This document shows, in pieces, positions 5,258 to 53,183 of a DNA stretch of 64,000 bases; position 1 is the stretch's first letter, and every line of letters starts with the position of its first letter. Both the position numbers and the translations under genes were made by a program. This DNA comes from a virus (Duplodnaviria > Heunggongvirae > Uroviricota > Caudoviricetes). Where the stretch lies: the IMG/VR virus record IMGVR_UViG_2698536687_000001; one strand, written 5' to 3'. A model generated the notes under the pieces. That model made no database searches. It was given only the letters and a program-made list of their open reading frames with translations, and was not told the DNA's origin.

Positions 5258-5475
5258 AGTCCCTCCTGAGCAGAAGCGTTAACAGGGAGGCACCAGTAAC
5301 TGAGAGAATTGCGCGAATCGGTAGAAAAGCGGGCAGAGAAAATACAGGGAGCATCCGGAAGCTGAGAACGTGCCTCATCTTCTGTCGGTGCAATAACGAA
5401 GTGATAGTGACGTTTTTGGCAGGAGTAAAAGCGCCAGATAAATTCAGGATGAGCAGGGGTAGGGATAGTAGCCAC
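5254..5475 (-). CDS. Icd-like small protein, 73 aa, copy B
   Basis: Differs from copy A at 2 residues; same operon arrangement. Confidence 0.55.
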   Translation of the reverse strand: MATIPTPAHPEFIWRFYSCQKRHYHFVIAPTEDEARSQLPDAPCIFSARFSTDSRNSLSYWCLPVNASAQEGL

Positions 5476-9138: not shown

Positions 9139-10182
9139 TTATCTAACGTTCGACGAGTGACTTGTGATAGCGCCGACTCCAAGCGCGTAATCAAAGAACA
9201 ATCGTTGATGCATCGCCAGCCTACCGTGCGTCTTCTCCCAATTATCGCGGTCACGCTCAATATCACGTTGGCATGACTGGCACAGAGGAATTGCGTAAAT
9301 GTCATGCGCGCATAATCGACTATGACGAACGATATAAGGCGTAATGTGAGCGCCAGCTCCCGCCGCTCCACACCCACAGCATGGACGGGAAGCAACAAAG
9401 TCCATGTACTCAGGTAATTTTAGCGATTGCAGTTTTGGGATTTTGAAATGCGCCATGCCAGGGTCGGAGTCAACATCCACAGGGCATACTTTTGCACGCA
9501 TCGGCGCGGCGCGTTCTTCCATCATCTGAACATATGCTGTAGCGCGATCGTCATACGGGCGAATATCCGCCTCTTTCAGAGGTCCGCTATCCTGCGTTGC
9601 GGCTTTCATCTTATTTATTGATATACGGCAAACTTCTTCCGGCATCAGGTGCATCATGTTGCGCATGAAAGCCCACCAGCACAGTTCCTGAATACTTAAA
9701 TCATGGCCATCTGAAAGCCCCATTTCCTGACGGGCGACATCCAGTATCCAGTTAACGCGATTATTATGCAGCGTTTCTTTCAGCTCATTAAAACCACGCA
9801 TCCGGTAATGGTTATCGTGATGCCAGCACAACAACACCGCGCTATTATCTCGTTCAGCGTGGACAATATGGTTGTCACACCAGCTACGATCTGCGGCCTG
9901 GCATCGCCCCTCTTTCCTGCGCAACCACGCCACCAGCGCGTCAATTCCACCAATACGACGAAACAGCTCATCGCTGTTAAAAAACGGCTGCAACGCCTCA
10001 TTTGTTGCCATGGTTTGCTCGGAAACAACGAGGCCGTCGTCCATGTGCTCGATTAACTCACGCGGCACCGGCTCCATAATAAATTTACGGCCAGCCTCCA
10101 CCAGCTTTCTGACTTCCTGATCCACTTTGAATGTGGCGACGCCAAGCTCTTTTTGTACAAAGGGAGTAATAATGGCTTTCAC
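9139..10182 (-). CDS. Hypothetical Cys/His-rich protein, 347 aa (post-doc operon position)
   Basis: Long ORF downstream of doc; C-terminal Cys cluster; no domain recognised. Confidence 0.5.
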
Positions 10183-10209
10183 ATCACACCTTTCATCACT
10201 GATTGGGCT

Positions 10210-10389
10210 TTATCTGCTGCCCGGCATTCTCTGTTTAAGCACAACCATTTCCTGACGGCATAACACAGCAATAGCGGTCCTGGCACCAATTTGCTTACCA
10301 ACCAGGTATTGCTTTACCTCGCGGCGACTCACGCCATCAAGAAGCATCTTTAACGCTTCACGGGACAACTTGTTGTATTTACGTGCCAT
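10210..10389 (-). CDS. Small hypothetical protein about 59 aa (post-doc position)
   Basis: ORF 10210-10410 overlaps doc 3-prime end; internal Met at 10389 assumed as start. Confidence 0.35.
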   Translation of the reverse strand: MARKYNKLSREALKMLLDGVSRREVKQYLVGKQIGARTAIAVLCRQEMVVLKQRMPGSR

Positions 10390-10393
10390 TAAT

Positions 10394-10774
10394 CTACTCC
10401 GCAGAACCATACAATCTACGTAACGTGTCGGCGACAGAAGATACAGATATCTCGCCAGTCGCAGCGCCTACAGTAAGGTCTGCCAGTTCAGGTGAATCAA
10501 ATACCTGCACCCCGTTACGGCGTAGAAATAACAGCGCACTGTTTAGCGCGGTACGCTTATTGGCATCATTGAATATATGCCCTCTCGCTGTAGCCACCAG
10601 GTAGGTGGCGGAGACTTCGAAAAGGTCGGTGATCTCTTCGTAGGCAACTCTGGCCTGAACTCTCCCGATAATGGCCTCTGCCCTACCCGGATCTGACATT
10701 CCCGGCAGGCCGCCGTAGCGGTTTATATTCGCATCATGAAGCGCAATAAGTTCTTCCGGTGATATATGCCTCAT
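10394..10774 (-). CDS. doc: Doc toxin (death on curing), 126 aa
   Basis: 126-aa [20 protein letters not shown]... recognised from memory as P1 Doc (Fic-fold kinase toxin); start overlaps phd stop. Confidence 0.9.
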
Positions 10775-10995
10775 TATCGGTTAACCAGTTCCTTGTTGGT
10801 GGAGTCCAGGGTGTCAAACAGGGATGCAAATTCAGCATCCAGCGCCGCTTTTTTGTAGGCTTCGAAAGTAGCCTTGCTGACAATTACTGCTGGCTCACGG
10901 CCTCTGCGGGTGATTTCAACCTCTTCCCCGGCCTCAACATTGTTGAGCACTTCAGAAAGGTTGCCGCGCGCGGTACGGAAGTTAATGGATTGCAT
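10774..10995 (-). CDS. phd: Phd antitoxin (prevent host death), 73 aa
   Basis: 73-aa ORF immediately upstream of doc with overlapping stop/start; size and context match Phd. Confidence 0.88.
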
Positions 10996-11002
10996 AAATA
11001 CC

Positions 11003-11025
11003 TCGTGTACTCGTTATGTGTACAC
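11003..11025 (-). promoter_or_regulatory. Candidate phd/doc operator palindromes
   Basis: GTGTAC at 11005-11010 and palindrome GTGTACAC at 11018-11025 just upstream of phd start. Confidence 0.4.
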
Positions 11026-11171
11026 AATTATAAACTTCACAGGCATAAAGCACCAGCACTTTGCGGCTTAACAAACCTCTAGGCAGGTCATTCGTAGCCT
11101 AATGTCCGAACTGCTAAAGCATCCAAGTTGCTGTAGAATCACCGCCAATTACATAAGCCTGAAATAAGTGG

Positions 11172-12734
11172 ATGAAAATGACAAGTATTCAACAACGTGC
11201 AGAGCTTCATCGTCAAATCTGGCAAATTGCTAACGATGTCAGGGGTTCGGTCGATGGATGGGATTTTAAGCAATACGTTCTGGGCGCACTTTTCTACCGT
11301 TTTATCAGCGAAAATTTTTCCAGTTATATTGAAGCCGGTGATGACAGTATCTGTTATGCGAAACTGGATGACAGCGTAATTACTGATGACATTAAAGACG
11401 ATGCCATCAAAACTAAAGGCTACTTCATCTACCCCAGTCAGCTTTTCTGCAACGTAGCTGCGAAAGCAAATACTAATGACAGACTGAATGCAGATTTAAA
11501 CAGCATCTTCGTTGCTATCGAAAGTTCTGCTTACGGTTATCCTTCAGAAGCTGACATCAAAGGTTTGTTTGCTGATTTCGATACCACCAGTAACCGCCTG
11601 GGTAACACCGTTAAAGATAAAAATGCCCGCCTAGCTGCGGTTCTGAAAGGGGTTGAAGGGTTAAAACTTGGTGACTTCAACGAACATCAGATTGACCTGT
11701 TCGGTGATGCCTATGAGTTCCTGATCTCTAACTATGCGGCAAATGCCGGTAAGTCAGGCGGCGAGTTCTTTACACCGCAGCACGTCTCTAAGCTGATTGC
11801 ACAACTGGCTATGCACGGGCAGACCCACGTTAACAAAATCTACGACCCGGCAGCAGGCTCCGGTTCGCTGTTGTTGCAGGCTAAAAAACAGTTTGATGAC
11901 CATATCATCGAAGAAGGTTTTTTTGGTCAGGAAATCAACCATACGACCTATAACCTGGCGCGTATGAACATGTTTTTGCACAACATCAACTACGACAAGT
12001 TTGATATCAAGCTGGGCAATACGCTGACTGAACCGCACTTCAGAGATGAAAAACCGTTTGATGCCATCGTTTCTAACCCGCCGTATTCGGTGAAATGGAT
12101 TGGCAGCGATGACCCGACGCTGATTAACGATGAACGTTTTGCCCCAGCTGGCGTTCTGGCCCCCAAATCCAAAGCTGACTTTGCGTTTGTATTACATGCG
12201 CTGAACTATCTTTCTGCCAAAGGTCGTGCTGCGATTGTTTGCTTCCCGGGTATTTTTTACCGTGGCGGTGCGGAGCAGAAAATCCGTCAGTATCTGGTCG
12301 ACAATAACTATGTCGAAACCGTGATTTCACTGGCACCGAATCTGTTCTTTGGCACCACCATTGCCGTCAATATTCTGGTGTTGTCTAAACATAAAACCGA
12401 TACCAACGTTCAGTTTATTGACGCCAGCGAGCTATTCAAAAAAGAGACTAATAACAACATCCTGACTGATGCCCATATCGAACAGATTATGCAGGTATTT
12501 TCCAGCAAGGAAGATGTTGCTCATCTGGCAAAATCTGTCACGTTTGAGGCCGTTGTCGCTAATGACTATAACCTGTCGGTAAGCAGCTATGTGGAAGCGA
12601 AAGATAACCGCGAAATTATCGATATCGGTGAGCTGAATGCTGAGCTGAAAACCACGGTCAGCAAAATCGACCAGTTGCGTAAAGATATTGATGCGATTGT
12701 GGCTGAAATTGAAGGCTGCGAGGTGCAGAAATGA
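11172..12734 (+). CDS. hsdM: Type I restriction-modification methyltransferase subunit HsdM (type IC-like), 520 aa
   Basis: N6-adenine MTase motifs ([14 protein letters not shown] at SNPPYS); 520 aa; stop overlaps hsdS start. Confidence 0.9.
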
Positions 12735-13981
12735 GCGAGATGAGTTATCTGGAAAAATTGCTGGATGGGGTTGAGGTTGAATGGAAAGCAGTGGGCGATA
12801 TCGCCGGGTATTCAACAACCAAAGTTGATGCTGATAAACTTGATGCCACTTCATTCGTTGGCGTTGATAATCTCCTTGCTGATAAAGGCGGTCGCATTGA
12901 TGCCACCTATCAGCCTAATACGGCACGTTTAACTGCCTATGAGCCAGGTGATATTCTTTTAGGTAATATTCGCCCATATTTAAAGAAAGTTTGGATGGCG
13001 GAGAATAATGGCGGGTGCAGTGGTGATGTCCTTGCTATACGCATTTTAGCAGACTGTAAAAAAATTATTAGTCCAGAATATCTCTACTATGCATTATCGT
13101 CGGATTCATTTTTTTCTTACAGTATGCAGCACGCTAAAGGGGCAAAGATGCCTCGAGGCAGTAAAGATGCAATTTTAAACTATCAAATACCCATCCCTTG
13201 TCCCAGCGCCCCGGGAAAATCCCTTGCCATCCAGTCTGAAATCGTTCGGATTCTGGATAAATTTACTGCACTTACCGCTGAACTTACCGCTGAGCTTACC
13301 GCTGAGCTTAACATGCGTAAAAAACAGTACAACTACTATCGCGACCAGTTGTTTAGTTTTAAAGAGAGTGAGGTTGAGTGGAAGACCTTAGGGGAAATTG
13401 GCCATTTTACCCGAGGTAAACGTTTTGTTAAAACAGATATGCTTTCTGAAGGTTATCCATGTATTCATTATGGAGAAATGTATACTTATTACAACGTATG
13501 GACAAATAAAACAAAGTCATTTGTTAGCCATGAACTGGCAAGTAAATTAAGAGTTTCAGAGTATGGTGATGTGATAATTGTTGCTGCCGGGGAAACAATT
13601 GAAGATATAGGAAAAGGAACAGCTTGGTTGGGTAAATCAAATGTTGTTTTTCATGATGCTTGCTTTTCATACAGATGCTTACTAAACCCTAAATATATTG
13701 CATACTTTACTCGAACAAAAATATTCCATGATCAAATAAAAAAACACATATCTTCAGGAAAGATATCAGCAATTAACGCAAATGGGTTATCCAAGGTAAA
13801 AATACCTATGCTTTCAGCGAAGGAACAAGCTCGCATTGTCGACATACTCGATAAATTCGACACCCTGACTAACTCTATCACTGAAGGTCTTCCGCGTGAA
13901 ATCGAGTTGCGCCAGAAACAATACGAGTACTATCGTGATTTACTGTTCAGTTTCCCAAAACCTGAAACTGTCAGTAATTAA
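12731..13981 (+). CDS. hsdS: Type I RM specificity subunit HsdS, 416 aa, with three central TAEL repeats
   Basis: Two target-recognition domains separated by central conserved region [13 protein letters not shown]; terminal conserved region [14 protein letters not shown]. Confidence 0.9.
13272..13307 (+). repeat. 3 x 12-bp direct repeat (CTTACCGCTGAR) encoding TAEL x3 in HsdS central spacer
   Basis: cttaccgctgaa cttaccgctgag cttaccgctgag read directly. Confidence 0.95.
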
Positions 13982-14102
13982 TTGACCATTGCTACCGACC
14001 GGGCCACCTTAACACCCGGTCAGTATATAGACTATTTTTTACACGCTGGAAGTCACAATTACCGCCCTTCCGGCCCTTGCCAGACGGCACAAAGGATGCG
14101 CT

Positions 14103-17100
14103 ATGACTCATCAAACACACACCATTGCTGAATCTAATAACTTTATCGTTCTTGATAAGTACATCAAAGCTGAGCAAACAAGCGACAGCTACCAGAGCGA
14201 ATCGGACCTGGAACGTGAACTGATTCAGGACCTGCGAAATCAGGGCTATGAATTTATATCCGTAAAATCACAGTCGGCAATGCTGGCCAATGTTCGGGAA
14301 CAGCTTCAGAACCTCAATGGTGTGGTGTTTAATGACAGCGAATGGAGGCGTTTCACGGAGCAGTATCTGGACAACCCGAGCGATGGCATTCTGGATAAGA
14401 CCCGTAAAATCCATATCGACTATATTTGCGACTTTATTTTTGATGACGAGCGTCTTGAGAATATCTATCTGATAGATAAAAAGAATCTCATGCGTAATAA
14501 GGTGCAGATTATCCAGCAGTTTGAACAGGCGGGTTCTCATGCTAACCGTTATGACGTCACGATCCTGGTTAATGGCTTACCACTGGTACAAATCGAACTG
14601 AAAAAGCGTGGTGTAGCGATTCGTGAGGCTTTCAACCAGATACATCGTTACAGTAAAGAGAGTTTTAACAGCGAAAATTCCCTGTTTAAGTATCTGCAGC
14701 TGTTCGTCATTTCCAACGGCACTGATACCCGTTATTTTGCCAACACCACAAAGCGCGATAAAAACAGTTTTGACTTCACCATGAACTGGGCTAAATCAGA
14801 CAATACACTGATTAAAGACCTCAAAGACTTTACCGCTACCTTTTTCCAGAAACATACTCTGCTTAATGTTCTGGTGAACTACAGCGTTTTTGACAGCAGT
14901 CAGACACTACTGGTAATGCGACCGTACCAGATTGCCGCCACCGAGCGCATTCTGTGGAAAATTAAGAGTTCCTTTACAGCGAAGAACTGGTCAAAACCGG
15001 AAAGCGGTGGGTATATCTGGCACACTACCGGTTCTGGTAAAACCCTCACCAGCTTTAAAGCCGCGCGTCTGGCAACAGAGCTGGACTTTATTGATAAAGT
15101 CTTCTTTGTGGTCGACAGGAAAGACCTCGATTACCAGACCATGAAGGAATATCAGCGTTTTTCGCCAGACAGCGTCAACGGCTCGGAAAATACCGCAGGC
15201 CTTAAACGAAATCTGGATAAGGACGATAACAAAATTATCGTCACTACTATTCAGAAACTTAATAACCTGATGAAAGCAGAAAGCGACCTGCCTGTATATA
15301 ATCAGCAAGTGGTGTTTATATTTGATGAATGCCACCGCAGCCAGTTTGGAGAAGCGCAGAAAAACCTGAAGAAGAAATTCAAACGCTATTATCAGTTTGG
15401 TTTTACCGGCACACCTATTTTCCCGGAAAACGCCTTAGGCTCAGAAACGACCGCCAGCGTATTTGGTCGTGAATTGCATTCGTATGTAATTACCGATGCG
15501 ATTCGTGATGAAAAAGTGCTCAAATTCAAGGTGGACTACAACGATGTGCGGCCACAGTTTAAGTCTTTAGAGACAGAAACTGACGAGAAAAAACTAAGTG
15601 CGGCTGAAAATCAGCAGGCGTTTCTTCATCCCATGCGTATTCAGGAAATCACGCAATATATCCTGAACAACTTCCGCCAGAAAACCCACCGTACCTTCCC
15701 AGGCTCCAAAGGCTTTAATGCCATGCTGGCAGTGAGCAGCGTGGATGCCGCGAAAGCCTATTACGCGACGTTTAAACGGTTACAAGAAGAAGCCGCTAAT
15801 AAATCGGCTACCTATAAACCGCTGCGTATTGCGACAATCTTCTCCTTTGCCGCCAATGAAGAACAAAATGCCATTGGTGAAATTTCCGATGAAACTTTTG
15901 ATACCAGCGCAATGGACAGCAGTGCTAAAGAGTTTCTGGACGCTGCAATTCGTGAATATAACAGCCATTTTAAAACTAACTTTAGCACCGACAGTAACGG
16001 TTTTCAGAACTACTATCGTGATTTAGCCCAGCGGGTTAAAAATCAGGATATCGATCTGCTAATTGTCGTGGGGATGTTTTTAACCGGCTTCGATGCTCCA
16101 ACATTGAACACGCTATTCGTCGATAAAAACTTGCGTTTTCACGGCCTGATGCAGGCATTTTCCCGCACCAACCGTATTTATGATGCAACTAAAACCTTCG
16201 GTAATATCGTCACTTTCCGGGATCTGGAACGCTCAACTATTGATGCCATAACGCTGTTTGGTGACAAAAACACCAAAAATGTGGTGTTAGAAAAGAGTTA
16301 TACAGAGTATATGGAAGGCTTTACTGATGCTGCTACAGGTGAAGCTAAACGCGGCTTCATGACAGTAGTTTCAGAACTGGAACAACGGTTCCCTGACCCT
16401 GCCAGTATTGAAAGTGAAAAAGAGAAGAAAGACTTCGTTAAACTGTTTGGCGAATACCTGCGTGCCGAGAACATCCTGCAAAACTATGATGAATTTGCCA
16501 CGCTAAAAGCCCTGCAACAAATCGATCTTAGCGATCCTGTTGCGGTAGAAAAATTCAAAGCAGAACATTATGTGGATGATGAAAAGTTCGCTGAATTGCA
16601 AACAATTCGTCTCCCTGCTGATCGCAAGATTCAGGATTATCGTTCTGCCTATAACGATATTCGCGACTGGCAGCGCCGTGAGAAAGAAGCTGAGAAAAAA
16701 GAGAAATCAACCACTGACTGGGATGACGTAGTTTTTGAGGTCGATTTGCTGAAGTCTCAGGAAATAAACCTGGATTATATCCTTGGACTGATTTTCGAAC
16801 ACAACAGACAAAATAAAGGCAAGGGCGAAATGATCGAAGAGGTCAAACGCTTAATTCGTTCAAGCCTGGGGAACCGAGCGAAAGAGGGCCTGGTGGTCGA
16901 TTTTATTCAGCAAACGAACCTGGATGATTTACCAGATAAAGCCAGTATCATTGAGGCATTCTTTACGTTTGCTCAACGCGAACAGCAACGTGAAGCAGAA
17001 GCATTGATAAAAGAAGAAAATCTCAATGAAGAAGCAGCAAAACGCTATATTCGCACGTCTTTAAAACGCGAATACGCCACCGAAAATGGCACAGAATTAA

Positions 17101-34279: not shown

Positions 34280-35181
34280 TGCTTAGCCTCTCCACCAAGG
34301 GCATTTACCAGAGCATCAACCAGGCACGAAATTTCACTGGTCAACAGGAAGAAATCTGCGTCCAGTCGCTGCGCTACATCTTCACTATCAATATCAGAGT
34401 TCTGATCAAGCAATTCATCCGCAAATTTGACGCTGGTAAGGCTGAAGTTATGGTCCAGTGTAAATTTAATGCGGTTCTGCCAGTCGAGTGCCAACTTAGT
34501 GACGAGCTTGCCAGCTTCCAGGTGTGTGGAAATTTCATCGCTTCCCAAATCCTGCTTTTTCACTCGGGCAATACCGCCATCCTCAAGCACTGCCTTAAGT
34601 TCTGCCGCATCCCCCATTTGAAATCCCTGTGGAGCACTACCATCACGTACCCAGTCGGTCAGCGTTAATTCAATGGGATTTTCAACACCCAGGGGAACAA
34701 CAGGAAGAGAACCCAGAGACTTACGCATAAGCGCGAGCATATCCTCTGCCTGCCGCGCGCTGGCATTGATATAGATACGTTTAGTTGAACCGTCGTAGAT
34801 CGCCTGGATAACAGAAAACTTTGAAAAAGCCCGTGGCAGAAGAGAATGCAGAACTTCGTCTTTCAGGGAGTCCTTCTCTGTTTTCTTCAGTTTACGCGCT
34901 TGTTCTTGCTCAAGTTTTTCAATTTTTTCTTGAATAGCTCGCTGGATAACCGGCGGGGGAAGAATTTTTGTTTCGCGCTTTGCTTCAACAAGGATAAAAC
35001 CATTTCCATGCATAGCGATAACTTCGGAATTATCACCAAATGGAGATACAAAACCGAACTTGGCCATATCCTGACTACCGCATGGCGTGAAAAGGATCAT
35101 TTTCTTTTTATCTTCTAAGTCGGTCAGATCCGCCTCACGAGAAAGTTTATAAATAGTAATGTTTTTCCAGTGCTTAAACAT
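34276..35181 (-). CDS. hrdC: RdgC-like recombination-associated protein, 301 aa
   Basis: From internal ATG 35179-35181: [16 protein letters not shown]...[14 protein letters not shown]..., closely resembling E. coli RdgC as recalled; the ORF-track N-terminal extension is upstream read-through. Confidence 0.75.
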
Positions 35182-35458
35182 GTTGTAACCCTTGAATATC
35201 AACCACAGAAAGCTCGTCTTTGTAGAAAAAGGCCAGGTTGTGGCACCCCCTCGTTTGAGCGTATGAGCTGGGACCAATTTCGTTCTTCCAGACAAATGGC
35301 TTCAAATCCGTACGGCGAAGCATAAAAACGCGATTTGTTCCGCTCTGATTCCCAATGAGGCAAAAGCCTTCTTTCACCTTGATAGCCTGCAAGTTGTCGA
35401 GTTCACCGCTGGTTACACGGCTATCGAACTCTTTGCGGCTTATTAGCTCCATCTGCAT
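35174..35458 (-). CDS. Hypothetical protein upstream of rdgC homolog (start uncertain)
   Basis: ORF 35174-35530 begins inside the operator; internal Met at 35458 chosen. Confidence 0.35.
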
Positions 35459-35529
35459 CTGACGACTCCAAACAAATGCCCATTGAAGGGCGATGGCTGA
35501 ATGGTACCGAAAATACGACATAAAAAACA

Positions 35530-35546
35530 ATATTTATTAGAGCAAT
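35530..35546 (-). promoter_or_regulatory. C1 operator-like site, 1 mismatch
   Basis: ATATTTATTAGAGCAAT. Confidence 0.65.
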
Positions 35547-35627
35547 TTTGCAATAGTTGAACTCCATGTAGACCACAAACAACCTGAGTTAAAATAACGA
35601 AAATCAGAGCAAATAATTGGTGATGAC

Positions 35628-35912
35628 GTGGCAAGTATTGCAACAAAAGACAGCATTTGTTCGGGGCACGAAGGATTCCCATCCAGGCCTCCTGTAGAGA
35701 GTGAACCACTACTTAAAGTCAACGGCGTCGAAGTGTTAGTTGATGGTAAGCAATATGCACAGCATACCGATGGAAACAGTACGCACGGTGGGCAAGCTAT
35801 ATCAACCAGGGCATGGTTTACCGTCAATGGTAAAGGGATCGTATGCGTTGGTGACCCTGTTTCATGCGGATCTACCGTAGCGTCCGGAGACGGCCTGGTT
35901 CAGGTAAGTTAG
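35628..35912 (+). CDS. Hypothetical small Gly/Cys/His-rich protein, 94 aa (possibly PAAR-like)
   Basis: CSGHEG ... THGG ... GKGIVCVGDPVSCGS pattern reminiscent of PAAR repeats; weak. Confidence 0.3.
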   Translation: MASIATKDSICSGHEGFPSRPPVESEPLLKVNGVEVLVDGKQYAQHTDGNSTHGGQAISTRAWFTVNGKGIVCVGDPVSCGSTVASGDGLVQVS

Positions 35913-35920
35913 GAGATATC

Positions 35921-36709
35921 ATGCTGGAAAAAGACTACCAGTTATCCGCATATAAAAAATTGGCCGCCGCCGGTGGGATGAAAACACCTGGTGCCATAAC
36001 ATCGGCACGAAACAGTGCTAACACAGCAAAACTGCTTGCAGAAGAATTGACCGGATTAATTCTGGATACAATTGTCTATCCCGACACTATTACCAGCTAT
36101 GTTTCAACGATCAGAACAACCACAACCGGCTTAACGAACATTGGAGAACTGGCAACTAAGCACGCGGACCTGTTGGCTGGTTATGCAGATCTGTCAATGC
36201 TGCTTCAACTCGATATTGGTTGGGATGTTTACTGCCGTGCTAATGAGCGAGAAGTATCAGAACTGCCGATCTCTATTGCCATTGGTGATGTGACTATTAC
36301 TAAATCGCTTGAGGACGCTGTAAACGCGCTTAATACATCAAGTTTAGTCGCTGCTATGGGGGAGATTAACCAGACCCTTAACACTGGCTCAGGAAGCTCG
36401 TCAGGCTCTGGTTCAGGCGGCGGCACTGCCACTCCCCCACCAGCACTAACAGAAGAGCAAATTGAATCTCTGAAAGTAGCAACTGAACAGTTTGGGGTTG
36501 TTTTCAACCAGACAACAGCGCCCACAACTGCGTTACAACAGCAGTATGAACGAGCGAATGAAAGCGCCAATGTAGCCATAACTGCTTATAACCATGCTAT
36601 CGGTACTGCGCTTGCGGAAGCATCAGCAAATAAGGCCAGCACAGCCAGCGCAGTTGCTGCTTTGGTTCCTGATTCTGTTCTTGATGAATTAAACAAAGCG
36701 GCACAGTAA
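35921..36709 (+). CDS. Hypothetical protein, 262 aa, with Gly/Ser-rich linker
   Basis: ATG at 35921 preceded by AGGAGA RBS; GSGSSSGSGSGGG linker; ORF-track upstream extension lacks RBS. Confidence 0.45.
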   Translation: MLEKDYQLSAYKKLAAAGGMKTPGAITSARNSANTAKLLAEELTGLILDTIVYPDTITSYVSTIRTTTTGLTNIGELATKHADLLAGYADLSMLLQLDIGWDVYCRANEREVSELPISIAIGDVTITKSLEDAVNALNTSSLVAAMGEINQTLNTGSGSSSGSGSGGGTATPPPALTEEQIESLKVATEQFGVVFNQTTAPTTALQQQYERANESANVAITAYNHAIGTALAEASANKASTASAVAALVPDSVLDELNKAAQ

Positions 36710-36748
36710 CAAAGGACTTCATTGATAATTTTTCTTCAGGAGGAAGAC

Positions 36749-37171
36749 ATGTCATTCTTTTCTACGTTAAAAACAGCTTTGTCTTTGAAGGAGAAACTTG
36801 CTGCTACTGGTGTTCTTGTTCTGATTTGCGCACTTGTTGGTGCTGGGTTTGCATGGGAACGTCATCAGCTAAAGCAAGCCATGGAGAAAATTGGCAGTCT
36901 TGATCAGGCTGTTAAGGAACGTGATAAGTCAATAATGGATCTTAACCAGACCATTGAGACGATGAACAAAGCAGAGCAACATTTTCACAGCCAGGAAGTG
37001 AAAAATGAATCAGAACAAGCCAAATATGCTGACAGGCAAATGGAACGAAAAGCTGAAGTTCAGAAACAACTGGTTGCGGCGGGTAATGTTCGCCAGCGCA
37101 TTCCTGCTGACACTCAGCGGTTGCTCCGGGAGTCGATCAGCGAATTTAACGCCGACGCCGACAAAGGTTAA
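36749..37171 (+). CDS. Membrane-anchored coiled-coil protein, 140 aa (i-spanin-like)
   Basis: RBS AGGAGG; N-terminal TM segment LAATGVLVLICALVGAGFAW then coiled-coil region; 3-prime end overlapped in another frame by a lipoprotein ORF. Confidence 0.4.
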   Translation: MSFFSTLKTALSLKEKLAATGVLVLICALVGAGFAWERHQLKQAMEKIGSLDQAVKERDKSIMDLNQTIETMNKAEQHFHSQEVKNESEQAKYADRQMERKAEVQKQLVAAGNVRQRIPADTQRLLRESISEFNADADKG

Positions 37172-37337
37172 CCACCCTGCCCCCAAAAGTGCATTTATGT
37201 GCAGAATGCCAGAGTTTAGCAGTGAATATTTTGATGATCTGCCAGCGTATATCCTCGATACAGAAACGATGCTGATGGGGATTAACAGGAAGAATCGCAA
37301 CGTTAATGATTACAACCGCGCTATCAGCGGTAACTAA
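37086..37337 (+). CDS. Small lipoprotein, 83 aa (o-spanin-like), overlapping the preceding gene in another frame
   Basis: MFASAFLLTLSGC lipobox; Pro-rich mature region NLTPTPTKVNHPAPK; second Cys. Confidence 0.4.
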   Translation: MFASAFLLTLSGCSGSRSANLTPTPTKVNHPAPKSAFMCRMPEFSSEYFDDLPAYILDTETMLMGINRKNRNVNDYNRAISGN

Positions 37338-37348
37338 AAGGGATTTTT

Positions 37349-37741
37349 ATGTCTGATAAAGTAACAGTAAAGCAAACTATCAACAAAGCGACGTCAATCT
37401 ACAAAATTGAGCAAATCACTGTTGGCAAGCCAGGATCTGAACAATACCGTCATGCTTTCGAGCTTGCCGATCAGCTTGGTTTAAAACACCCGGATTGCAT
37501 TGAGCATGTATTTCCGACCTATGCTGATGAGCAATGTACTCATGTTCTTACCGAAGAGGATTTTTTCAGCACTGAAGAACGAGAAGGCGTTGATCGCTGC
37601 ATTGGTGTGATTTGCTCTTCAGTGAGTTATGAGTTATTCCCTAATGTCCATGAAAATGGTGGTATTGGATACCAATTCCTGTACGAAGGCGATGAGCTTA
37701 AATGTTATGAACATGGTCTTCTTATCGAAAGCGTAGAATAA
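37349..37741 (+). CDS. Hypothetical protein, 130 aa
   Basis: ORF immediately upstream of plasmid origin. Confidence 0.45.
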   Translation: MSDKVTVKQTINKATSIYKIEQITVGKPGSEQYRHAFELADQLGLKHPDCIEHVFPTYADEQCTHVLTEEDFFSTEEREGVDRCIGVICSSVSYELFPNVHENGGIGYQFLYEGDELKCYEHGLLIESVE

Positions 37742-37781
37742 TACCCTTACTTCCAACCGGCTATGTTGGCCGGTTTTTCAC

Positions 37782-37859
37782 TTATCCACATTATCCACTG
37801 GGTAGATCCAATAATTAGGTCCATACAGATCCCAATTAGATCCATATAGATCCCTGATC
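37782..37859. promoter_or_regulatory. oriR: Plasmid origin elements: tandem DnaA boxes and five GATC heptamers
   Basis: TTATCCACA at 37782-37790 and TTATCCACT at 37791-37799; GATC at 37805, 37828, 37839, 37849, 37856 in AGATCCA-type heptamers; further DnaA-like boxes at 38013-38040. Confidence 0.8.
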
Positions 37860-37898
37860 GTTGCAGGCCGCGCCACGTCTGGCTTAGAAGTGTATCGC

Positions 37899-38003
37899 GA
37901 TGTGTGCTGGAGGGAAAACGATGTGTGCTGGAGGGATAAAAATGTGTGCTGACGGGTTGCTAATGTGTGCTGGCGGGATATAGGATGTGTGCTGACGGGA
38001 AAG
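37899..38003 (+). repeat. Five 19-bp iterons upstream of repA (incC-type)
   Basis: GATGTGTGCTGGAGGGAAA-like repeats beginning 37899, 37921, 37942, 37963, 37985. Confidence 0.85.
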
Positions 38004-38058
38004 CCTGGGTAGTTATCACCACTTATAAAAACTATCCACATAATTCGGAAAAAGTAAT

Positions 38059-38919
38059 ATGAATCAATCATTTATCTCCGATATTCTTTACGCAGACATT
38101 GAAAGTAAGGCAAAAGAACTAACAGTTAATTCAAACAACACTGTGCAGCCTGTAGCGTTGATGCGCTTGGGGGTATTCGTTCCGAAGCCATCAAAGAGCA
38201 AAGGAGAAAGTAAAGAGATTGATGCCACCAAAGCGTTTTCCCAGCTGGAGATAGCTAAAGCCGAGGGTTACGATGATATTAAAATCACCGGTCCTCGACT
38301 CGATATGGATACTGATTTCAAAACGTGGATCGGTGTCATCTACGCGTTCAGCAAATACGGCTTGTCTTCAAACACCATCCAGTTATCGTTTCAGGAGTTC
38401 GCTAAAGCCTGTGGTTTCCCCTCAAAACGTCTGGATGCGAAACTGCGTTTAACCATTCATGAATCACTTGGACGCTTGCGTAACAAGGGTATCGCTTTTA
38501 AGCGCGGAAAAGATGCTAAAGGCGGCTATCAGACTGGTCTGCTGAAGGTCGGGCGTTTTGATGCTGACCTTGATCTGATAGAGCTGGAGGCCGATTCGAA
38601 GCTCTGGGAGCTGTTCCAGCTTGATTATCGCGTTCTGTTGCAACACCACGCCTTGCGTGCCCTTCCGAAGAAAGAAGCTGCACAAGCCATTTACACTTTC
38701 ATCGAAAGCCTTCCGCAGAACCCGTTGCCGCTATCGTTCGCGCGAATCCGTGAGCGCCTGGCTTTGCAGTCAGCTGTTGGCGAGCAAAACCGTATCATTA
38801 AGAAAGCGATAGAACAGCTTAAAACAATTGGCTATCTCGACTGTTCAATTGAGAAGAAAGGCCGGGAAAGTTTTGTAATCGTCCATTCTCGCAATCCAAA
38901 GCTGAAACTTCCCGAATAA
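38059..38919 (+). CDS. repA: Plasmid replication initiator RepA, 286 aa
   Basis: 286-aa ORF flanked by iteron arrays; N-terminus MNQSFISDILYADIESKAKELTVNSNN... recognised from memory as P1 RepA. Confidence 0.88.
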   Translation: MNQSFISDILYADIESKAKELTVNSNNTVQPVALMRLGVFVPKPSKSKGESKEIDATKAFSQLEIAKAEGYDDIKITGPRLDMDTDFKTWIGVIYAFSKYGLSSNTIQLSFQEFAKACGFPSKRLDAKLRLTIHESLGRLRNKGIAFKRGKDAKGGYQTGLLKVGRFDADLDLIELEADSKLWELFQLDYRVLLQHHALRALPKKEAAQAIYTFIESLPQNPLPLSFARIRERLALQSAVGEQNRIIKKAIEQLKTIGYLDCSIEKKGRESFVIVHSRNPKLKLPE

Positions 38920-39203
38920 GTGTGTGCTGGAGGGCAGCTGCATTTGAAAAATGTGCGCTGCCGGGAATGCCTGCCCATTTTCCTGTTTTTGGTGTGCGCT
39001 GGAGGGTTGCGCCACGCAGTTTGCCCAGACATTCCCTCCAGCACACATCTAACCATCCAAGTTTCCCTCCAGCGCACATCTAATCTTCTATCTTTCCCTT
39101 CAGCGCACATATTTGATACCAGCGATCCCTCCACAACACATAATTCAATGCGACTTCCCTCTATCGCACATTCTGGTCCTGCATCATCCCTCCAGCACAC
39201 ATC
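38919..39203. repeat. Nine iterons downstream of repA (incA-type copy-control locus), 3 direct + 6 inverted
   Basis: GTGTGTGCTGGAGGG-like repeats at 38921, 38951, 38990 then inverted CCCTCCAGCACACAT-like copies through 39203. Confidence 0.85.
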
Positions 39204-39312
39204 TAATAGCCTCATCGCCATTTCTTTACGTGCAATAATTTACGCACGAATCAAAATAAGTTGCACGTAGCAGAATCAAACGTACAATTCACTCATACGA
39301 AATGATAAGGAG

Positions 39313-40524
39313 ATGATGATGAAACGCGATTACGGCGGTGTCGGCACCATAGCTCTTCGTGCAAGCGCATTACTTAAGGCCATGAGTCAGGATATTGAAG
39401 ATCAGCGCAAAGAGTTCAATCAGACCGAGTATTATCAGACGTTCACTCGTAACGCTGTGGCAAAGTTGCCGAAGCTGAGCCGCCGCATTGTGGAGCAGGC
39501 CATCAAAGAGATGGAAGATGATGGGTACCAGTTCAACAAGAAACAGGTCGGTAACGTTGAACAGTACGCGCTGACCATCCAGAACGTCATTGATATCTAT
39601 GCCCACCGTAAGATCCCAAAATATCGCGACATTCACAAATCGCCTTACGTTATTTTTGTCGTAAACCTGAAGGGTGGCGTATCCAAAACGGTTTCCACAG
39701 TCACGTTGGCGCACGCTCTGCGTGTGCATCAGGATTTACTGCGTCACGATCTGCGCATTCTGGTAATTGACCTTGACCCTCAGGCATCCAGCACAATGTT
39801 CCTCGACCATACTCACAGTATTGGTTCCATCCTGGAAACTGCCGCGCAGGCGATGCTGAACGACCTGGACGCGGAGACGCTACGCAAAGAGGTGATTCGT
39901 CCGACCATCGTTCCTGGCGTAGACGTGATTCCAGCCTCTATCGACGATGGCTTTGTTGCCAGCCAATGGAAAGAGCTGGTTGAAGAGCATCTTCCCGGAC
40001 AAAATCAGTACGAAATCCTTCGACGCAATATCATTGATCGTGTTGCGGATGATTATGACTTTATCTTTATTGATACCGGTCCACACCTGGATCCGTTCCT
40101 GCTCAACGGTCTGGCGGCCAGCGATTTGCTGCTTACCCCTACCCCACCAGCCCAGGTTGACTTCCACTCAACACTGAAATATCTCACCCGTCTGCCAGAA
40201 ATGCTGGAGCAACTGGAGGAGGAAGGCGTAGAACCGCGTTTAAGCGCCAGCATTGGTTTTATGTCGAAGATGACCGGCAAGCGCGATCACGAGACATCAC
40301 ACAGCCTTGCGCGTGAGGTTTACGCCAGCAACATTCTGGACTCTTCTCTGCCTCGTCTGGATGGATTTGAGCGATGCGGCGAGTCTTTCGACACCGTAAT
40401 CAGTGCCAACCCGCAATCGTATCCAGGCAGTGCAGAGGCGCTGAAGAAGGCACGAACCGAGGCCGAGCGTTTCACTAAGGCTGTGTTTGATCGAATTGAG
40501 TTTGTTAGGGGTGAGGCGGCATGA
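39313..40524 (+). CDS. parA: Partition ATPase ParA (type Ia), 403 aa
   Basis: Deviant Walker A NLKGGVSKT; N-terminal extension typical of type Ia ParA; stop overlaps parB start. Confidence 0.88.
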   Translation: MMMKRDYGGVGTIALRASALLKAMSQDIEDQRKEFNQTEYYQTFTRNAVAKLPKLSRRIVEQAIKEMEDDGYQFNKKQVGNVEQYALTIQNVIDIYAHRKIPKYRDIHKSPYVIFVVNLKGGVSKTVSTVTLAHALRVHQDLLRHDLRILVIDLDPQASSTMFLDHTHSIGSILETAAQAMLNDLDAETLRKEVIRPTIVPGVDVIPASIDDGFVASQWKELVEEHLPGQNQYEILRRNIIDRVADDYDFIFIDTGPHLDPFLLNGLAASDLLLTPTPPAQVDFHSTLKYLTRLPEMLEQLEEEGVEPRLSASIGFMSKMTGKRDHETSHSLAREVYASNILDSSLPRLDGFERCGESFDTVISANPQSYPGSAEALKKARTEAERFTKAVFDRIEFVRGEAA

Positions 40525-41486
40525 AAAAAATAGTTTCCCGTGGACGAGTGCTGGGCAAGAATAGCTCCGAGTTTGCTCGCATGCTTGAAGGCAGTGAAGG
40601 CACCAAAACCTTTACCCTAAAATCTGGCCGCCAGGCTAAATTTTTGCTTACCGTTGTGCTGAGTGGTGAGATTGAGTCGCGCACGTTCGTTGACCCGGCA
40701 GTTAACGGCCGCGATCAGTCTCTGCTCACCCCTAAGTCGGTAAGCGATATTTCCCGCACCATTAAATTGCAACAGTTCTTCCCGGCTATCGGTCGTATGG
40801 TTGGGGAGCGCATTGAGGTATTGGACGGATCACGTCGCCGCGCTGCGTGTATCTTCAATGAAACGAAATTTGAGATTCTGGTGACGAAAGATGAGATCAG
40901 CCTGGCGGATGCACGCCAGCTGGCCATTGATATCCAGACAGCCCGCGAACACACCCTGCGCGAACTGGGTAAACGCTTCGAGGTTATGTATGGTAAGAGC
41001 ATGACCAAAGAAGAGATCGCCCGCGCTGAGAACATTTCAAAGGCTAAAGTTACGCGCGCGTTCCAGGCGGCAGCGGTGCCGGATGAGATGATTGCTGTCT
41101 TCCCTGTTGCCAGCGATCTCGCCCTGCCAGATTACCAGTTACTGCTCCAGATCTCCGAGGATGCCAACGCTAAAAGCGTGCCTATTGAAGAGCTGGTTGA
41201 TACGGTGCGCGAACGAATTGCAGAGACTGAGGGCGCGAAAGAGGATAAAGCGAAGATACTGGCTATCTTCAAAGCGGAAAGCAAAAGCCTGAAGCCCGCG
41301 CCGGTTAAATCTGTGGTGGTTGAGAAGCTGCGAGACTTCTCTGACCGTCGCCAATATGCTCGAAAGAAGTCCGATCCGAAAAAACGGGTTGTCGCCTACG
41401 AGTTCTCCAGACTCCCGTCTGAAGTGCAAACTGAAATTGACGAAGCAATAAAAAAAATCATTGGGAAAATGTCTGCTGGGGAATAA
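40521..41486 (+). CDS. parB: Partition protein ParB, 321 aa
   Basis: ORF translationally coupled to parA (ATGA overlap); followed by AT-rich centromere-like region. Confidence 0.8.
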   Translation: MKKIVSRGRVLGKNSSEFARMLEGSEGTKTFTLKSGRQAKFLLTVVLSGEIESRTFVDPAVNGRDQSLLTPKSVSDISRTIKLQQFFPAIGRMVGERIEVLDGSRRRAACIFNETKFEILVTKDEISLADARQLAIDIQTAREHTLRELGKRFEVMYGKSMTKEEIARAENISKAKVTRAFQAAAVPDEMIAVFPVASDLALPDYQLLLQISEDANAKSVPIEELVDTVRERIAETEGAKEDKAKILAIFKAESKSLKPAPVKSVVVEKLRDFSDRRQYARKKSDPKKRVVAYEFSRLPSEVQTEIDEAIKKIIGKMSAGE

Positions 41487-41720
41487 TCCCGCTGGTGGGA
41501 GGTGGTGTTAGCCCCTCCCCTTCCTAAAATGTCCCGCACCAATTTCATTACTAACCTTATGATTTGCATGTGTTTTTTAGGAGAATTTCAGACTGAAATT
41601 CCCACGATTTAACGCCTGCATTCACCGTCCACTTCCCCGCACAAAAAATTTAAAAAATTACTTTTCGCGAGAAAGTCAACAAGTGACTTTCAATAAAATC
41701 TCTTCCGAAAAGGGATTCAC
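41487..41720. other. parS: Candidate parS centromere region
   Basis: AT-rich non-coding region after parB with ATTTCA-type heptamer-like motifs (41531-41541, 41583-41614); differs from recalled P1 parS box sequences. Confidence 0.4.
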
Positions 41721-52661: not shown

Positions 52662-53183
52662 ATGATTCTTATGTCTAAAAAGTATACTTTATGCGCTCTT
52701 GTTGTATCTGCAATTCTTCTTTCTGGGTGTCAATCTAGCGGTGCTGATTATGCTGCCGATGTTTATGATACCGCTCAATTGAATTCGAAGCAGGAAACAA
52801 AGACAGTCAATATTATCTCTGTGCTTCCAGCTAAAGTGAAAGTTGATAATAAAGCTAATAAAGAAGCGGCACAGACATTTGGTGCGGTACTGGGAGCTGT
52901 TGCTGGGGGCGTTGCCGGTTATAATGTTAAAGGCACATCGACACTGGGTGCTGTAGCTGGCGGTACTGGTGGTGCGGCTCTTGGTGCAGCGGCTGGTTCT
53001 TTGGTTAGTGATAAAACAATTGTTGAAGGTGTTTCACTGACTTATAAAGAAGGAACTAAGGTGTTCACTTCAACTCAAGTTGGTAAAGCATGCCAGTTTA
53101 CAACGGGGCTTGCTGTGCTTATTTCAACTAAAGATAATGAAACTCGAATTCAGCCAAATGCTACTTGTCCAGAAAAGAAATAA
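52662..53183 (+). CDS. Lipoprotein with glycine-zipper region, 173 aa
   Basis: Signal peptide with lipobox LLSGC; GAVLGAVAGGVAG...GAVAGGTGGAALGAAAG. Confidence 0.55.
   Translation: MILMSKKYTLCALVVSAILLSGCQSSGADYAADVYDTAQLNSKQETKTVNIISVLPAKVKVDNKANKEAAQTFGAVLGAVAGGVAGYNVKGTSTLGAVAGGTGGAALGAAAGSLVSDKTIVEGVSLTYKEGTKVFTSTQVGKACQFTTGLAVLISTKDNETRIQPNATCPEKK

Follow-up and report, generated by a model that had tools for sequence, protein, structure and literature searches.

In the 64,000-nt stretch of DNA analysed here (the window) we found two overlapping genes beside a plasmid replicon which, judged by sequence comparison, are ppfA and mlp of a P1-like plasmid prophage, and which very probably encode the two-component spanin of a P1-like phage-plasmid, diverged from but of the same overlapped type as LysB/LysC of phage P2. 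An overlapped i-spanin/o-spanin pair outside a lysis cassette had been proposed before from the letters of the sequence, and this proposal is supported by sequence features, homology and literature. The underlying observation was confirmed in part, as the features and the frame stood, but the start codon, the proline content and the distance to oriR did not. The spanin reading is correct but already known, both from a published assignment, which is itself a prediction, and from RefSeq annotation, where the P1 record labels mlp 'Rz-like spanin'. The two genes and their main sites are as follows.

36738-36743, plus strand: Shine-Dalgarno sequence AGGAGG of ppfA, seen in the sequence and the same site as in Kongari 2018 Table S1
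36749-37171, plus strand: ppfA, predicted i-spanin of 140 aa (ORF, phrog_89, AF2, heptad pattern)
37005-37337, plus strand: mlp, predicted o-spanin, the precursor of an outer-membrane lipoprotein, with 110 aa counted from the annotated ATG and a mature part of 71 aa
37113-37124, plus strand: lipobox L-S-G-C of mlp, seen in the sequence, its Cys encoded at 37122-37124 and followed by Ser

Comparison with phage records showed that the window matches P1/P7-like phage-plasmids throughout and is itself such an element. Using megablast, positions 36500-38100 are 98.3% identical to Escherichia phage P1 (OP279344), 97.7% to P7 and 97.3% to the P1 reference NC_005856, and the P1 features lying under this match are ppfA, mlp, upfA, upfB, oriR and repA. 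The order of the window is that of the P1 map reversed, running from cre to the tail-fibre gene S, and compared to reference P1 the element is a P1/P7 mosaic and not reference P1 itself. The gene pair shows only strain-level substitutions against that of P1: PpfA is 99% identical to P1 PpfA (gp064) with one differing residue (M44 versus I44 in the reference), Mlp differs from P1 Mlp (gp063) at two residues (N7 versus S7 and A32 versus V32), and the gene order with the neighbours upfB, upfA, oriR and repA is the same.

According to Summer 2007 and Kongari 2018 an i-spanin possesses a single N-terminal transmembrane domain and a mostly helical periplasmic domain, and PpfA shows this architecture by prediction. 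The ORF at 36749-37171 encodes the 140-aa protein with one N-terminal membrane helix that had been described, and this helix is located at about residues 17-35 (nt 36797-36853), which form a 19-residue hydropathy peak of 2.35 and the sole membrane-helix-like stretch of the protein by hydropathy. The predicted periplasmic domain is helical and carries no cysteine. In an AlphaFold2 (AF2) model built on 20 family members (mean pLDDT 71) a long helix spans residues 13-110, followed by a break at AGNVRQRIP and a second helix at 120-139. Furthermore, at residues ~48-75 L, I, V or M occupies 7/8 of the heptad a/d positions, which was reached by 0.6% of shuffles. The periplasmic part, which had been called coiled-coil, can thus be described as helical in AF2 and partly coiled-coil by its heptad pattern.

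The mlp frame lies at +1 relative to ppfA and is an open frame between 37002 and its stop at 37337, as expected from the earlier description of a lipoprotein ORF lying in another frame over the 3' end of the 140-aa gene, past which it extends by 166 nt. Depending on the start codon the overlap of the two genes amounts to 167 nt (ATG 37005), 98 nt (TTG 37074) or 86 nt (ATG 37086). This is a gene layout typical of spanins, where the o-spanin gene is embedded in the i-spanin gene, overlaps it or is the next one on the same strand. We could also find the lipobox LTLSGC that the sequence-only reading had named, with FASAFLLTLSG/C as the stretch around the predicted cleavage site (slash) and a Ser following the Cys. 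An o-spanin carries a lipobox Cys without the inner-membrane retention residue Asp at +2, and with its Ser at this position Mlp fits this definition. The term 'Pro-rich' describes Mlp only in so far as there is a moderate enrichment, 6 of the 71 mature residues being proline, four of them within the first 25.

Using the PHROGs collection both proteins were assigned to spanin families, with PpfA matching phrog_89 (1.2e-25) and Mlp matching phrog_30284 (2.2e-77) and, more weakly, phrog_456 (4e-5), all three being annotated as 'Rz-like spanin'. The lysis proteins of P2 fall into the same families, as LysB matches phrog_89 (5.8e-61) and LysC matches phrog_456 (1.7e-31) and also phrog_30284. Over an alignment of 68 residues Mlp is 37% identical to P2 LysC (E 5e-8), and the alignment includes a Pro-rich stretch and a conserved Cys after it. 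Sub-threshold hits in NCBIfam were phage_LysB (TIGR03495; 1.3e-3, 19 bits versus a cutoff of 92.75) and P2_Rz1 (NF038368; 0.033, 14.3 bits versus a cutoff of 27). When the PpfA family was compared directly with P2 LysB at profile level (hhalign), the match did not reach significance. The Pfam families Rz and Rz1 gave no match at E <= 1 for either PpfA or Mlp; in that scan PpfA had only coiled-coil noise below threshold, and Mlp had no hit at all. At the level of sequence, Mlp is recognisably homologous to LysC, and PpfA is linked to LysB only through profile families, that is, by common PHROG membership.

The resemblance to P2 LysB/LysC is also one of arrangement, namely a type II membrane protein of ~140 aa overlapped at the 3' end of its gene, in the +1 frame, by a lipoprotein gene of ~100 aa (141 and 96 aa with a 146-nt overlap in P2). 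In contrast to the P1 pair, which lies beside the plasmid replicon, P2 lysB/lysC are part of the lysis cassette and come straight after holin Y, endolysin K and lysA. With lambda Rz/Rz1 the pair shares the predicted topology and the presumed mechanism, involving an inner-membrane helical protein and, encoded in the +1 frame, a Pro-rich lipoprotein of the outer membrane, but lambda Rz1 is wholly embedded in Rz whereas the window mlp runs past ppfA, and no sequence similarity to the Pfam families Rz or Rz1 could be detected. In lambda, Rz molecules are joined by disulfides between their periplasmic cysteines. The cysteines of the window pair differ from this, with none in the periplasmic part of PpfA and one in Mlp.

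The published record leads to the same assignment. In Table S1 of Kongari et al. 2018 (PMC6139136) gp064/gp063 of P1 (NC_005856) are listed as an overlapped ('ovl') two-component spanin, the i-spanin gp064 with 140 aa, a 104-residue periplasmic domain and no periplasmic Cys, and the o-spanin gp063 with 110 aa, 71 mature residues, a 39-residue signal, one periplasmic Cys and a LipoP cleavage site at position 39. Bednarek et al. 2022 (PMC9025707) refer to ppfA and mlp as the P1 spanin genes 'in yet another unlinked operon' and quote Summer 2007 for their identification. The introduction of the same paper (PMC9025707) swaps the labels and names ppfA as o-spanin and mlp as i-spanin. From the predicted features of the proteins PpfA is the i-spanin and Mlp the o-spanin, the reverse of that sentence. 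A whole-word search of literature text for 'ppfA' returned unrelated acronyms only.

To the collection of P1-type sequences we could add four diverged relatives (L003-L006) from Cronobacter, Klebsiella aerogenes, Salmonella and a metagenome run, whose PpfA is 59-63% identical. The 589-nt ppfA/mlp pair is free of indels in six sequences down to 59% protein identity, and the +1 ORF and the lipobox Cys are kept in 4/4 relatives, the lipoboxes being LSAC, LNAC, LNGC and LSAC. Downstream of the ppfA stop the synonymous and non-synonymous changed codons in the lipoprotein frame number 13:11, 24:9, 19:10 and 15:13 in the four relatives, while the other two frames of this non-overlapped stretch of mlp give 1-4 : 23-34; inside the overlap nearly all changes are non-synonymous in the mlp frame. 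As judged from these substitution patterns, both the ppfA and the mlp frame are under purifying selection. For the lipoprotein gene, the codon-change pattern together with the invariant C-terminal motif INRKNRNVN.YNR of Mlp argues for selection at the protein level, and it is therefore not a chance ORF. That the lipoprotein ORF could be an accidentally open frame over the ppfA end and not a gene, as one might think from gene callers often missing or shortening mlp (many database entries are fragments of 46-65 aa) and from the non-synonymous changes inside the overlap, has next to no probability left and is effectively refuted by the codon-substitution pattern, as synonymous changes dominate in the mlp frame only, downstream of ppfA, the frame stays open without indel in six sequences down to ~60% identity, the lipobox Cys is as invariant as the C-terminal motif, and Mlp is homologous to P2 LysC. 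In a survey of P1-like phage-plasmids (PMC9603915) both mlp and ppfA belong to a set of 21 genes described as 'extremely conserved'. A separate observation concerns L004 and L005 (~5365-5376), where the lipobox has an Asn at -2 (LNAC, LNGC), outside the usual consensus, and where the substitution leaves the amino acid of the overlapping ppfA frame unchanged (CAG to CAA).

Three start codons have to be considered for mlp, together with one possible ribosome binding site.

36993-36998, plus strand: Shine-Dalgarno-like site AGGAAG, 6 nt 5' of ATG 37005, AGGAGG in the diverged relatives
37074-37076, plus strand: alternative mlp start TTG (87 aa), ATG in the relatives and aligned with LysC Met1
37086-37088, plus strand: ATG taken as mlp start in the sequence-only reading (83 aa), unlikely to be the real start

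The 83-aa lipoprotein could not be upheld, because its start ATG 37086 is not conserved, being CTT/CTC/CTG in the diverged relatives, and because it would leave a short signal of 12 residues without any basic residue. ATG 37005 (110 aa) is the start used by the P1 annotation and by the survey of Kongari 2018, whose Table S1 flags the resulting 39-residue signal of P1 Mlp as 'Too long signal sequence' (PMC6139136). Starting at TTG 37074 gives a canonical 16-residue lipoprotein signal, (M)RRVMFASAFLLTLSG/C. This codon aligns exactly with Met1 of P2 LysC and is ATG in 4/4 diverged relatives (L003-L006, ~5326-5328) and TTG in P1-type sequences; inspection of the sequence upstream of it revealed no Shine-Dalgarno site. 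By a manual residue count on aligned translations, ~30% of the mlp-frame residues upstream of TTG 37074 and ~70% downstream of it are common to the two lineages. These comparisons make ATG 37005 or TTG 37074 a likelier mlp start than ATG 37086, and they suggest that the annotated 110-aa Mlp may be over-extended or that two starts may be present.

The neighbourhood of the pair comprises the following features.

35530-35546, minus strand: C1 repressor operator with 1 mismatch to ATTGCTCTAATAAATTT, the counterpart of P1 Odmt/Op68
35628-35912, plus strand: upfC, PAAR-like (phrog_281 3.4e-30; NCBIfam PAAR 2.5e-9, below cutoff; P1 annotation)
35864-36709, plus strand: upfB, unknown-function family phrog_1559 (2.6e-138; P1 annotation), with a 39-nt gap before ppfA
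37349-37741, plus strand: upfA, unknown-function gene (phrog_1453), 11 nt 3' of mlp
37755-37775, plus strand: terminator-like hairpin of 9 pairs followed by a T run, closing the upfC-upfA string before oriR
37899-38002, plus strand: incC iterons of oriR, five 19-bp RepA sites (P1 annotation)
38059-38919, plus strand: repA, after the incC iterons (ORF list)

Within this region ppfA and mlp are the third and fourth genes of the tightly packed, co-oriented string upfC-upfB-ppfA-mlp-upfA, and the C1 operator sits in the divergent intergenic region between uhr and upfC. The first gene, upfC, overlaps upfB by 49 nt and, as the P1 record states, is a relative of T4 gp5.4, so that a PAAR-like, probable virion-tip gene heads the same string as the predicted spanin pair beside the replicon. 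The pair had been placed directly upstream of the plasmid origin; it is near oriR but not adjoining it, because upfA and the terminator-like hairpin lie between, and from this layout it appears to be transcriptionally insulated from oriR. Its position outside a lysis cassette was seen correctly, as the neighbours are upfB, upfA and oriR-repA with no holin or endolysin adjoining. Most spanin genes are found in a lysis cassette, which is the usual but not an obligatory place, and ppfA/mlp are not. On the P1 map lyz is located at 20.3 kb, lydAB at 30.4 kb and ppfA at 63.5 kb, and the clusters lyz-lydD-lydE and lydA-lydB at 20-31 kb of this map fall outside the 64-kb window.

The synteny dmt, hrdC, uhr, upfC-upfB-ppfA-mlp, variable slot, repA-parA-parB is kept in 4/4 diverged relatives and, from this comparison, this group of phages had the pair beside the replicon ancestrally. 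Between mlp and oriR the gene content varies, with upfA in the window, a Phage_gp49_66-family gene in L005 and L006, both of these genes in L003 and no gene in L004. The gene upfA has been listed as a variable region, and in phage JL22 it is interrupted by a blaCTX-M-55 insertion (PMC9603915).

The P1 record predicts two promoters for ppfA, both of the sigma-70 type. From the annotated P1 promoters LPlyz and LPdar we derived the late-promoter pattern AAGTNAYTT-N4-TANNNT, which has no match anywhere in 24999-41645, and a sigma-70 scan gave promoter-like sites no more commonly than in shuffled sequence. Neither ppfA nor mlp appears in the P1 transcriptome papers. It might be that the P1-type pair is unusually regulated and translated, with its expression uncoupled from lyz/lydAB or even lysogenic and with the o-spanin made from TTG as an 87-aa protein. 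The uncoupling may follow because a C1 operator adjoins, only sigma-70 promoters are predicted and the Lpa late-promoter motif is missing, but as a whole we consider this proposal unlikely.

Several points speak against the spanin reading: the long annotated signal, LNAC and LNGC in two relatives, PpfA lacking a periplasmic Cys, the non-essential score by CRISPRi, an assay in which spanin defects frequently stay mild, the pair having neither holin nor endolysin beside it and no late-promoter motif, the missing Pfam Rz/Rz1 match and the PpfA-LysB profile comparison that was not significant. In the CRISPRi screen of Piya et al. 2023 (PMC10695390) the efficiency of plating (EOP) was 1.3/1.2 for ppfA and 0.24/0.19 for mlp, and both genes were scored non-essential for P1 plaque formation, while lyz was scored essential in the same screen (PMC10695390). 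One could conclude from this, and from the physical and perhaps also transcriptional uncoupling of the pair from lyz and lydAB, that ppfA/mlp are a spanin homologue which is dispensable or redundant in P1 and that the outer membrane is disrupted by another route. We regard this as quite improbable, as ppfA and the non-overlapped part of mlp show clear purifying selection, both genes are full-length across P1-like phage-plasmids, the knock-down does not silence the genes completely and, under laboratory conditions, plaque assays hardly respond to the loss of a spanin (PMC9025707).

Another explanation would be that the pair encodes envelope proteins for the prophage-plasmid state, serving superinfection exclusion, surface modification or maintenance and made from sigma-70 promoters beside the replicon. 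It would agree with the repA, parA, parB neighbourhood in every relative examined, with sigma-70 promoters being the only ones that the P1 record predicts for ppfA, with the absence of the late-promoter motif upstream and with both genes being scored non-essential for plaque formation. Nevertheless it is very improbable, as PpfA and Mlp have their homologues in the lysis pair LysB/LysC of P2, a membrane-protein gene overlapped by a lipoprotein gene is the signature of spanins, the gene string starts with a PAAR-like and probably virion gene, a terminator separates the string from oriR, and models of defence systems (PADLOC) gave no match for any gene of the upfC-upfA string.

For the spanin reading, which we thus prefer, a mechanism can be proposed by analogy with the lambda Rz/Rz1 spanin model, which is well established (reviewed in PMC6139136) and from which we infer lipidation, complex formation, membrane disruption and expression timing of PpfA and Mlp. 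PpfA would insert into the inner membrane by its N-terminal helix, with the helical domain in the periplasm. Mlp would be lipidated at Cys40 and cut by signal peptidase II and, having Ser and not Asp after the lipobox Cys, would be sorted to the outer membrane. Both proteins would then bind each other across the periplasm through the peptidoglycan mesh, and once the SAR-endolysin Lyz removes the wall the PpfA/Mlp complexes might complete lysis by fusing the inner with the outer membrane or by disrupting both.

Some further features were noticed in the window. An ORF of 170-173 aa at 52662-53183 (plus strand) has a strong lipoprotein signal (MSKKYTLCALVVSAILLSG/C) and corresponds to P7 upf50.5, an 'outer membrane lipoprotein of unknown function'; the next gene in P7 encodes a DUF5384 membrane protein. 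The ORF stands where P1 has its sim region, adjoining c4/icd/ant, and its PHROG and RefSeq label 'DNA methyltransferase' looks like a mislabel. A type I restriction-modification cluster (methylase, S subunit, HsdR) is located at ~9500-15500 between phd/doc and pmgS; it matches phage vB_EcoM-673R5 and not reference P1, and in the record of that phage HsdR is split into several ORFs. In the region 1-25000 some part is matched at 80-90% identity by 127 records of Stx-converting and other lambdoid phages, which suggests a module in common with lambdoid phages, possibly Roi/antirepressor or Icd-like genes.

In summary, as this pair shows, the genes for a spanin need not lie close to the rest of the lysis genes and may be located beside a plasmid replicon. 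If its expression were indeed uncoupled and the TTG start used, the last step of lysis would be timed differently from that of phages with cassette-encoded spanins. The finding matters mainly for correct annotation, and the overlapped lipoprotein gene is one that gene callers still miss or cut short.
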